Source: Escherichia coli (lineage in GTDB: Bacteria; Pseudomonadota; Gammaproteobacteria; Enterobacterales; Enterobacteriaceae). Taken from it: a stretch of DNA of 64,000 nt. The notes under the pieces were generated by a model that saw only the letters and a program-made list of their open reading frames with translations, was not told the DNA's origin and did no database searches. The position numbers were made by a program, and so were the translations under genes. Positions 15,731 through 18,550 of this stretch are shown here, piece by piece; position 1 is the first letter of the stretch; each line of letters begins with the position of its first letter. The stretch lies in assembly GCF_045037415.1 (NCBI RefSeq), contig NZ_CP173438.1; one strand, given 5' to 3'.

Positions 15731-16119
15731 TGATAAGCGTTGATTCATTTAGAAAAATAACAAACCCTGTTTTTAATGACGAGCATGGGTTATCTATAAA
15801 TATTATTTGCGATATTGACGGGATTGGAAACGACATTCCATTCACCGCAATGAAAAATGATTGCGAGGAACACGGTAGGGTTTTATATGAAAGAGCGCTG
15901 AGCGGGGATTATGGGAGCATTTCTAAATTTGTAAAAAAAGAGCAGACGCAAAAACTCCAGACTACATTACGGACTGTTGGCGATCTGTCAATTGAGGCAT
16001 TCTCAATTCAGTGTGCAGTAGATGCCGGAACCGCATCTGACGCGCAAATCGAAAATTTGGCCGAGCTTAAAGAAGCAATAGCGACGCGAATTGGTGAAAA
16101 TAGAGAAGGAATAAAATGA
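15730..16119 (+). CDS. putative tail fiber assembly / chaperone protein
   Basis: 129 aa ORF directly after fibre gene, low GC. Confidence 0.4.
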   Translation: MISVDSFRKITNPVFNDEHGLSINIICDIDGIGNDIPFTAMKNDCEEHGRVLYERALSGDYGSISKFVKKEQTQKLQTTLRTVGDLSIEAFSIQCAVDAGTASDAQIENLAELKEAIATRIGENREGIK

Positions 16120-17618
16120 GCGTAACTAATTTTTTACACGGTATTCGCACGCTCGAATACGACGACGGCACAAAAGAGATCAACACAGTAGATATTTCCG
16201 TGATTGGGATTGTTGGTACTGCTCCCGATTCCAGCTACCCAACTTGTGCATCACTATTATGGGGATCAGAGCTCGCAGACAATCTTGTTGAGTTTTCGAC
16301 TGTCATGCCAGGGGCCGACGGAAACAACTGGATTGTTGAAATTGTTGATTTGGGAATTAACGGGAATGTAGCAACTCCAGGATACAGCACACTGCCCGAC
16401 GGTTCGAGAAAATTAACAATGATCACGGACGGTGCCATGACCCCGTCAAAAATGTACGATCAGAACCAGCAGTATAAAGAAGGACTCCAGATTGGAGAAT
16501 ATATTAACGTCACATTCGGTGGTGATCACGCAGGAACGGGGACTGTATTCGCGCTCCCCCCAACAAATTTATCCGGTGGTAAAGACGAATCGTTCAAATA
16601 TAATGTTCCGACGTTAATTGCAGGCAGTCAAAAAAAAGCTGGATTGCTCGGTGGGTCTGGAACCCTTCCTCCCGCTGTATCTGAAATACTAAATCAGGAG
16701 GATGCCATTATTGTTGTTGTCCGCGTCGAAGAGGACAGCGACGAAACAAAAATGCGGCAGAACGTCGTTAACGGGATTAACGCATTGTTGACGTCTGCGC
16801 AAATAAATCAAGTAACGCCGAGAATTTTAATCGCTCCAGATTATAGTGCTAACGATTATATTGCAGAACAACTTGAAGTGGTGACAAATAAATTACGAGG
16901 CGTTGGATATATCGATTCACCGCGAGGCGCTACGCCTGCTGACGTTGTAAATCGTCGTCAGAGGTACGGCGGCAGAATGGAAATTCTGCGCCCTCGTGTT
17001 TATTCTACGAGTGATGTTAGTGGTTTATCTCGTCCGTATTCAGCTATCGCTGCTGGTTTACGAGCCAGAATTGATAACGAAAAAGGGTTTTGGTGGAGCA
17101 AATCGAATCAAAATATCTACGGAATTACAGGACTCGAACAAGTCGATGATTTTATAATCGGTGAAACGAACTGCACAGCAAATCTGCTGAACGCCAGCCA
17201 GGTCAGCACAATTATTCGCTATGATGGATTCAGACACTGGGGTAACTATCTGTGTAGCCTCAGTCCCCAATGGTCCTTTGAATGCGTTCGTCGGACAGCT
17301 GACGTAATTGAGGATTCAATAGCCCGGGCAATGATGACCGATTTTATTGATCGCCCGATAGACCTGCACCTCGGAACAGACGTTGTAGAGTCGATAAACG
17401 CGTATCTGCATAAATTAGAGGAGCAGGGCGCGATTAACGGAGGACGGGCGTGGTTAGATGAAGAGTTAAATACAAAAGAAAGTCTGGCCGCTGGTAATCT
17501 TTATATTAATGTTGACTTTGGACCGAAATCCCCGGCACAAACAATTACGTTAATGTACCGCATTAATAATGATTACACAGTTGAAGCTCTGGCCTCTCTT
17601 TTTAAAGAAACAGTCTAA
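16116..17618 (+). CDS. contractile tail sheath protein (P2 FI-like)
   Basis: 500 aa; N-terminal MS..N..HG...LEY pattern like P2 FI; size and position. Confidence 0.85.
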   Translation: MSVTNFLHGIRTLEYDDGTKEINTVDISVIGIVGTAPDSSYPTCASLLWGSELADNLVEFSTVMPGADGNNWIVEIVDLGINGNVATPGYSTLPDGSRKLTMITDGAMTPSKMYDQNQQYKEGLQIGEYINVTFGGDHAGTGTVFALPPTNLSGGKDESFKYNVPTLIAGSQKKAGLLGGSGTLPPAVSEILNQEDAIIVVVRVEEDSDETKMRQNVVNGINALLTSAQINQVTPRILIAPDYSANDYIAEQLEVVTNKLRGVGYIDSPRGATPADVVNRRQRYGGRMEILRPRVYSTSDVSGLSRPYSAIAAGLRARIDNEKGFWWSKSNQNIYGITGLEQVDDFIIGETNCTANLLNASQVSTIIRYDGFRHWGNYLCSLSPQWSFECVRRTADVIEDSIARAMMTDFIDRPIDLHLGTDVVESINAYLHKLEEQGAINGGRAWLDEELNTKESLAAGNLYINVDFGPKSPAQTITLMYRINNDYTVEALASLFKETV

Positions 17619-17635
17619 TAATCTGGAGAATTGAT

Positions 17636-18148
17636 ATGGCAGATAGTAACACCTATCGTGCATTTGCGTTGTTCGTCCAGGGAGAACGAGTTTTAAATTG
17701 CACTGAATACACTCCCGTCGATATGAAAATAATCGAAGATGATTTTAAGACGGGCGCTATGGATACAGCTATCACTCTGGACGGGGGAATGGAGAAAATG
17801 TCAGCCAGTTTTAAAGTCTCTGGCTCCGATTCTGGTGTGATGGGGTATTTGGGATTAATACCAGGTGCTAAAACAAGGTTCGAAATTCGAAGTGCATATA
17901 CTGACAATTACGGTGTCAATTTTGAACGTATTGATACATATGAGGGGCTTATTACGGCGATTACTGATGACGCGCAGGGGACTGATTCAAAATCAGCAGT
18001 TGGGCAATCAGTAACGATTGCGCCGAGCTATTATAAACGAGTTCAAAATGGAAAAATTATTTACGAGATTCATCCTGCAAAAATGAAACGAGTAATTAAT
18101 GGTGTTGACGTTCTTGCGGGCGTTGCTCGTATTCTCCATGTATATTAA
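17636..18148 (+). CDS. tail tube protein (P2 FII-like)
   Basis: 170 aa directly after sheath. Confidence 0.7.
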   Translation: MADSNTYRAFALFVQGERVLNCTEYTPVDMKIIEDDFKTGAMDTAITLDGGMEKMSASFKVSGSDSGVMGYLGLIPGAKTRFEIRSAYTDNYGVNFERIDTYEGLITAITDDAQGTDSKSAVGQSVTIAPSYYKRVQNGKIIYEIHPAKMKRVINGVDVLAGVARILHVY

Positions 18149-18160
18149 AAGGCAAATAAA

Positions 18161-18442
18161 ATGGAATCATTATTAGACAGTATGACTATTACGCTCTCTC
18201 GCCCGTTTATTATTAAGGGGGAGAGCCGCGATACAATTACTATTCGCGAACCAAAATTACGCGACCGCATTATGTTCAGTAACGATAAAAGTGGTCTTGA
18301 AGAGCGGACAGCGACAATGCTGGCGCGCCTGGCAAATCTGGAGCGTGAGGATTTATATGCACTGCCTGCGTGCGATTACGATCAAATGGAGGCCGCATTT
18401 AACGAACTGGTAAAGCCTCCGAAAGACCGACATCAGATATAG
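18161..18442 (+). CDS. tail assembly chaperone (P2 gpE-like); a -1 frame extension (E'-like) is open to about 18550
   Basis: 93 aa ORF upstream of tape measure; overlapping -1 frame ORF without own start. Confidence 0.6.
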   Translation: MESLLDSMTITLSRPFIIKGESRDTITIREPKLRDRIMFSNDKSGLEERTATMLARLANLEREDLYALPACDYDQMEAAFNELVKPPKDRHQI

Positions 18443-18550
18443 TTATTCTGATTCCGTTTATTGCGAAAAAACTTGCCATCCCGCCCGATACGCAAATGGA
18501 CCTGCCGTACCGGGTTTTTAATTTCTATGTAAACGAGGTCATGAAAATCG

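Follow-up and report, generated by a model that had tools for sequence, protein, structure and literature searches.

[quoted passage not shown] The question is raised by the window analysed here, a stretch of 64,000 nt from E. coli contig NZ_CP173438.1, in which a sequence-only reading had tentatively proposed that an E-like chaperone gene is extended into the -1 frame. Comparison of this locus with its relatives suggests that a second, longer protein is very probably made from it by a programmed -1 frameshift, of the kind known from lambda and P2, at the unusual slip sequence G_GUA_AAG.

The tail operon and its prophage

The operon, of the P2-like contractile type, occupies positions 16116-22050 of the window, and the features on which the argument turns are the following.

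16116-17618: sheath gene, a member of the P2-like tail operon
17636..18148, plus strand: tail tube gene, P2 FII-like, 170 aa (from the ORF list; called major tail tube protein in the records of phages and of E. coli)
18161..18442, plus strand: E-like tail assembly chaperone, zero frame, 93 aa (stop TAG at 18440-18442; PF10109; PHROG 166)
18403..18442, plus strand: overlap zone of 40 nt in which the zero and -1 frames are both open (from frame translations)
18409..18415, plus strand: proposed slip site G_GUA_AAG (invariant heptamer; zero frame cuG GUA AAG, -1 frame GGU AAA G)
18415..18573, plus strand: putative E' extension, -1 frame after the slip, 52 codons (18415-18570) and TAA at 18571-18573 (from conservation, predicted helices and kinship to the E' of P2, L036 and Mica)
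18551..20191, plus strand: tape measure protein gene, 546 aa (from the ORF list; its first 23 nt overlap the end of E')

The genes for gpU, gpX and gpD lie downstream of the tape measure gene. The tube gene directly precedes the chaperone gene, and the tube proteins of the relatives belong to PF04985. The order tube, E, tape measure is the same in all relatives, as is the place of the tape measure start (ATGGC, +142 nt from the slip site), and in no record is a gene annotated in the 108-nt stretch between the E stop and the tape measure gene.

The host element is a prophage, its head module lambda-like and its tail P2-like, inserted beside yecA/tyrP. Of 5,426 complete E. coli genomes 452 have identical DNA, among them those of the ST131 strains EC958 and JJ1886, and four database records submitted as "phages" represent this element too; a profile search of genome contigs with a 9-sequence alignment returned one locus. 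A 139-aa ORF (22217-22636) that separates the gpD remnant from yecA at the end of the prophage has a lipoprotein-type signal peptide (..LALVGCATKP..) and may be a cargo gene, and ARAGORN found no tRNA in 22000-23200. Between gpU and gpX the minus strand has a hydrophobic ORF of 44 aa (20624-20758); several relatives have a PF14373 (Imm_superinfect) gene of 77-80 aa at this place, and the ORF in the window may be what is left of it or a shortened form.

The chaperone gene and the open -1 frame

The 93-aa product matches Pfam PF10109, Phage_TAC_7 ("E, or 41 or 14"), with E = 6.5e-15 over residues 9-84, is also assigned to PHROG 166 (tail protein), and is labelled "phage tail assembly protein" by PGAP. 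The -1 frame relative to this gene is preceded by a TAA at 18400-18402 and is open for 56 codons (18403-18570) up to its own TAA. The peptide that the sequence-only reading had quoted as evidence of an extension (..IVILIPFIAKKLAIPPDTQMDLPYRVFNFYVNEV..) does belong to the -1 frame of ORF 18161-18442, and the frame is open as that reading had described it, from about 18400; the end given there, at about 18550, falls short, since the frame continues 23 nt further, to 18570, and thus overlaps the tape measure ATG at 18551. The extension had also been said to have no start codon of its own, and rightly so: the first ATG/GTG/TTG of the frame is at 18496, well within the conserved part of E' and after 30 conserved codons, and among the lineages compared below no such codon is conserved ahead of the conserved E' residues.

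On its own an open -1 frame is weak evidence, because such stretches are common in the window: in about half of the ORFs of at least 90 aa the -1 frame stays open for 56 codons or more over the ORF's own stop, a control that is confounded by neighbouring genes. Judged from the window sequence, then, the bare length of the frame is not unusual, and it is the relatives that make the case. These were gathered by protein searches and contig look-ups, and the clade so sampled comprises 30 members with 26 distinct sequences, which were cut to 14 non-redundant representative lineages for analysis; the nucleotide identity of their E genes is 54-95%. Conservation among relatives had been put forward as a point on which the proposal could fail, and the frame is open in all 14 lineages, for 55-56 codons, and for 53-63 codons across the wider relatives apart from that of Burkholderia phage Mica (86). 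The distance from the slip site to the E' stop is identical in 14/14 lineages, with zero indels.

The proposed slip site

Given that the zero and -1 frames are both open only at 18403-18442, the shift must fall within this overlap. The sequence-only reading could not find a canonical slippery heptamer, and X_XXY_YYZ is indeed absent from these 40 nt, but the near-canonical G_GUA_AAG lies among them at 18409-18415, in register for a -1 shift. When the 14 lineages are aligned ungapped, no stretch of nucleotides free of variation is longer than TGGTAAAG, which contains this heptamer, and the heptamer itself is unchanged in 30/30 clade members examined.

The conservation exceeds what the E protein would need. 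Twenty-seven columns of E hold an invariant, degenerate amino acid, and only two of these, the valine (GTA in 14/14) and the lysine (AAG in 14/14), are invariant in codon as well; all 23 conserved degenerate codons upstream of GTA AAG vary synonymously. Ahead of GTA, 8 lineages have CTG and 6 have ATG, which makes position 1 of the heptamer a G throughout, and the other conserved leucine columns in E make use of five different codons. The locus thus has a slip-prone A_AAG in register and conserved beyond protein-level need, and we propose from this pattern that G_GUA_AAG, a non-canonical motif of the A_AAG type, is the slip site that had been missed.

Re-pairing of the P-site tRNA from GUA to GGU leaves a central mismatch. 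The GUA codon is read by a wobble-prone tRNA (cmo5U34), and motifs of the NNA_AAG type were reportedly studied by Licznar et al. in EMBO J in 2003. A text search of the literature for the heptamer string returned unrelated microRNA papers only. Of all tetramers, A_AAG is the one most prone to shift in E. coli, and bare tetramers that have no stimulator shift at about 0.15% in reporter assays (PMC4066793), so the efficiency of the frameshift here could be very low. NNA_AAG motifs, for example G_CGA_AAG in IS1222, are established productive -1 sites, with higher efficiency when a wobble-prone tRNA reads the 5' codon (PMC5009743).

Candidate stimulators

Sites of the dnaX or IS3/IS911 type have a hairpin or pseudoknot 5-9 nt downstream, a Shine-Dalgarno-like sequence 10-14 nt upstream, or both, and the site in the window does not have the features of this type. 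A search for structure downstream of the slip site, as the sequence-only reading had advised, gave no conserved hairpin or pseudoknot: RNAalifold predicted no consensus structure from the 14 lineages, the minimum-free-energy fold that includes a hairpin in the window (ATCAGA/TCTGAT) was no better than shuffles (z = -1.34), and a CGGAA/TTCCG helix drawn by hand around the E stop showed no covariation, its 63.6% paired being the mean of column shuffles. We rejected a downstream stimulatory RNA structure on these three grounds.

Upstream, a Shine-Dalgarno-like GGAGG is found at 18383-18387, 16 nt from the heptamer. The optimal spacing for stimulation of a -1 shift is 10-14 nt, and the GGAGG here is further away; it is present in 10/14 lineages and missing in the other four. 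A Shine-Dalgarno-like stimulator is accordingly not supported.

That the heptamer is non-canonical, that no stimulator was found and that the overlap continues for 27 nt downstream of the heptamer could all be taken to mean that the frameshift is real but takes place at some other point of the 40-nt overlap or in a different way (for instance by slippage in the P site only, at another codon, or by slippage during transcription), with TGGTAAAG conserved for some other cause. We consider this improbable. The rest of the overlap is conserved at the nucleotide level in single codons at most, and in several lineages the -1 frame opens just 3 nt ahead of the heptamer, which leaves little room for another shift site; the longest homopolymer in the overlap is A3, which makes transcriptional slippage implausible.

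Distant relatives and their slip motifs

Deeper relatives, namely L032, L033, L036, Hafnia phage yong2 and Citrobacter phage Chris1, each have a start-less -1 ORF of 53-63 codons. In L032 and L033, the E proteins of which are 35-41% identical to that of the window, a canonical T_TTT_TTG is found one codon upstream of the homologous position, and in L036 (E 33% identical) CTG_CAA_AAG stands exactly at the homologous codons. Phages yong2 and Chris1 have GTT_TTT_ATG, and are annotated without a frameshift product. The Mica gene has A_AAT_TTT, a -1 ORF of 86 codons and a curated frameshift annotation, while P2 is annotated with a -1 shift at GGT_TTT_TTG.

A comparison with the E/E' pair of P2 had also been suggested at the outset, and here the inferred fusions align with P2 E+E' over their full length, end to end and collinearly, with coinciding slip sites. 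At the level of E' alone the hhalign match to P2 is collinear and weak (P = 0.0016, probability 16%). The E' of L036 supplies a link, its motif WPPSEVMNLPYRMF standing between HWPPSELYPMSL of P2 and IPPDTQMDLPYRVF of the window. The likeness to lambda G/GT and P2 E/E' proposed in the sequence-only reading thus holds in the position of the gene, its PF10109 membership, the start-less and selected -1 ORF, the in-register motif and the collinearity with P2.

Across the PF10109 homologues (L032, L033, L035, L036, L037, L038 and L039) there are at least five slip motifs at or near one position. Other distant relatives (P0028, P0034, P0040, P0042, P0043, P0046 and others), of 170-200 aa, consist of two tandem PF10109-like domains, that is, a duplicated chaperone.

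The predicted fusion protein

The predicted E+E' fusion, encoded by 18161..18415 joined to 18415..18570, has 137 aa: 85 zero-frame residues followed by 52 from the -1 frame (...AAFNELVK-ASERPTSDIVILIPF...SKL). Its predicted junction, ...NELVK-ASERP..., contains LVKASE, and the E' peptides encoded by the -1 frame include PTSDIVILIPFIAK and LAIPPDTQMDLPYR.

An AlphaFold2 model built on a 17-sequence fusion alignment has a mean pLDDT of 84 and a pTM of 0.71. The E part is modelled as a beta-hairpin plus helices, and the E' part as three helices (91-105, 109-113 and 117-131) with pLDDT of about 88-91. The top match of this model in BFVD, a collection of predicted viral structures, is the 137-aa "tape measure chaperone" of Mica (E = 9.8e-7 over 120 columns); sequence and fold searches of the PDB gave no meaningful match to a solved structure. 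E' had no match in Pfam, NCBIfam or PHROGs, and in Pfam specifically PF06528 (Phage_P2_GpE) matched none of 15 E' sequences, the fusion having no match beyond PF10109.

Among proteins from public assemblies (P0001, P0002, P0003 and P0005) there are variants, which may be real alleles or assembly errors, in which a 1-nt insertion permanently joins E to E', and others in which E is joined to the +1 frame. The permanent E-E' proteins, as in P0001 and P0002, have 137 aa and the junctions ..VKLSERP.. and ..NETGKAPERP..; those fused to the +1 frame have 119 aa.

Evidence that E' is probably translated as part of a fusion

Selection on the extension was examined in a segment of 32 codons that belongs to E' only, after every E stop and before the tape measure ATG. 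Column entropy in this segment was 0.62, 0.41 and 1.13 at positions 1, 2 and 3 of the -1-frame codons, pN/pS was 0.33 in the -1 frame vs 1.23 and 1.61 in the other two frames, and stops numbered zero in the -1 frame vs 1-6 per sequence in the other two. The conserved peptide reads ..DI(I/V)IL(I/L)P(F/Y)..K.L.IPP..Q..(L/M)PYRVFNFY..EL.K..G... By these substitution patterns E' is protein-coding and under purifying selection.

Translation of E' need not in principle involve a frameshift. It might be a separate small protein, made by initiation or termination-reinitiation at a non-canonical start (ATA, ATT or CTG at about 18439-18450) beside the E stop, and several observations point this way: the conserved E' sequence (D-I-[IV]-I-L) has the E stop (18440-18442) in its first part, L036 has an E'-frame ATG right at its E stop, where a gene caller predicts a 41-aa ORF, and the yong2 record annotates a separate 39-aa ORF. 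This reading is, in our estimate, marginally less probable still than a shift at another site. The clade has no ATG, GTG or TTG at a conserved position, annotation treats the homologous products of P2 and Mica as fusions, and a separate protein would explain neither the synonymous invariance of GTA AAG nor the slip-type motif at the same codon in every relative.

Least credible of all is that the -1 frame is untranslated and conserved through a nucleotide-level constraint, in the tape measure initiation region or an RNA element; a 56-codon open frame does arise commonly by chance in the window and the last ~30 nt overlap the ribosome-binding site and start codon of the tape measure gene, but substitutions are codon-periodic, with low pN/pS in the -1 frame only and zero stops in 14 lineages, no conserved RNA structure was found, and the confident predicted fold matches a known frameshift chaperone.

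Proposed mechanism

A conserved coding -1 ORF, an invariant in-register motif and homology to known frameshift products are established by the comparisons above, and we infer the slip, how exactly the tRNAs bring it about, how efficient it is and how the proteins interact as follows. The chaperone gene in all likelihood gives rise to two proteins, E and E+E', via a -1 slip at G_GUA_AAG. Most ribosomes would read 18161-18442 and produce the 93-aa E-like chaperone, while a small fraction would slip back by 1 nt at 18409-18415. Probably the one tRNA-Lys of E. coli lets go of AAG and pairs again on the overlapping AAA; the P-site tRNA-Val that reads GUA may simultaneously re-pair, imperfectly, on GGU. 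Slipped ribosomes would go on in the -1 frame to 18570, and the 137-aa fusion is probably a rare product.

If the pair works like lambda G/GT and P2 E/E+E', binding of the tape measure protein would fall to the N-terminal part that both products share, and recruitment of the tube protein to the E' part with its three predicted helices. Through this recruitment, as we propose, the tube would begin to polymerise on the tape measure, with the ratio of chaperone to fusion fixed.

A more speculative idea, which we regard as unlikely, is that G_GUA_AAG works free of any stimulator, with partial P-site re-pairing, and still reaches a useful efficiency at roughly the percent level through context effects undescribed for phage structural genes. 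Candidates for such effects would be the wobble-prone P-site tRNA-Val or the conserved nascent peptide AFNE(L/M)VK. The same idea includes repeated exchange of slip types at the same codon (T_TTT_TTG, GUU_UUU, G_GUA_AAG, G_CAA_AAG and A_AAU_UUU), which possibly tunes the ratio of E to E+E'.

A defect in gpD of this strain

E. coli GF131 (NZ_CP172134) has an intact gpD of 348 aa. Relative to this gene, with which it shares 94.9% DNA identity, the gpD region of the window (21006-22050) contains one extra A at about 21773, which breaks it into an ORF of 257 aa and a fragment of 54 aa. The gpD of P2 is annotated as essential, and given that its counterpart is broken here, this ST131-type prophage is probably unable to build tails. 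The tail module would thus probably be defective as judged from its genes, and the frameshift signal in this strain is intact yet possibly idle.

Significance

Comparative sequence data support the site in the window as one more case of tail-chaperone frameshifting, a known class; the case is unannotated and its motif is a non-canonical one of the A_AAG type. Because frameshifting in tail chaperones is textbook recoding, its presence here is expected and unsurprising. What the case bears on is annotation and method: the prophage family, with its 452 E. coli genomes, and phages yong2 and Chris1 are all annotated without E+E', and heptamer searches restricted to X_XXY_YYZ miss the G_GUA_AAG site. 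The various slip motifs of the PF10109 homologues, moreover, offer a compact natural series on motif type vs chaperone-to-fusion ratio.

Comparison with known frameshift systems

In lambda the chaperone gene (gpG/gpGT) lies upstream of the tape measure gene, as in the window, and a rare -1 shift yields a fusion, as proposed here. The lambda slip sequence GGGAAAG (G_GGA_AAG) is one base apart from GGUAAAG, and both have the A_AAG lysine slip; lambda is not known to require a strong RNA stimulator (PMC5009743). The differences are that the proteins of the window have no detectable sequence homology with G or T, that lambda is a siphovirus whereas the tail encoded in the window is contractile, and that the P-site codon in the window cannot fully re-pair.

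The A_AAG and NNA_AAG motifs of insertion sequences (IS1222 G_CGA_AAG and the IS3 family) share with the window a 5' codon that ends in A and the slip of the A-site tRNA-Lys from AAG to AAA that is proposed here. Those motifs, however, are known from transposase genes and usually come with a downstream pseudoknot or hairpin, whereas the motif in the window belongs to a phage structural operon in which no stimulator was detected.

In operon design the window parallels P2, where gpE and gpE+E' arise by a programmed -1 frameshift in the FETUD tail operon, as stated in the passage of PMC5009743 that cites Christie et al. 2002. The order sheath, tube, E, tape measure, U, D is common to both operons, the E proteins align collinearly over their full length, that of the window being a PF10109 member, and E' is in both cases a start-less -1 frame that overlaps the tape measure start. 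The fusions are of similar size (137 aa here, 142 aa in P2), with slip sites at the same alignment position. P2 uses a canonical T_TTT_TTG, however, in place of the G_GUA_AAG of the window clade; the E' of the window lacks the PF06528 match and is weakly similar to that of P2; the overlap of E' with the tape measure gene is 23 nt in the window and 8 nt in P2; and gene X stands between U and D in the operon of the window.

Mica (CPT_Mica_022/023) differs in its slip site, an A_AAU_UUU close to the E stop, and in its E protein, which is about 31% identical. Like the window it has a PF10109 chaperone and the E' motif SE..LNM..RF, and its frameshift product of 137 aa is the top structural match of the fusion model.
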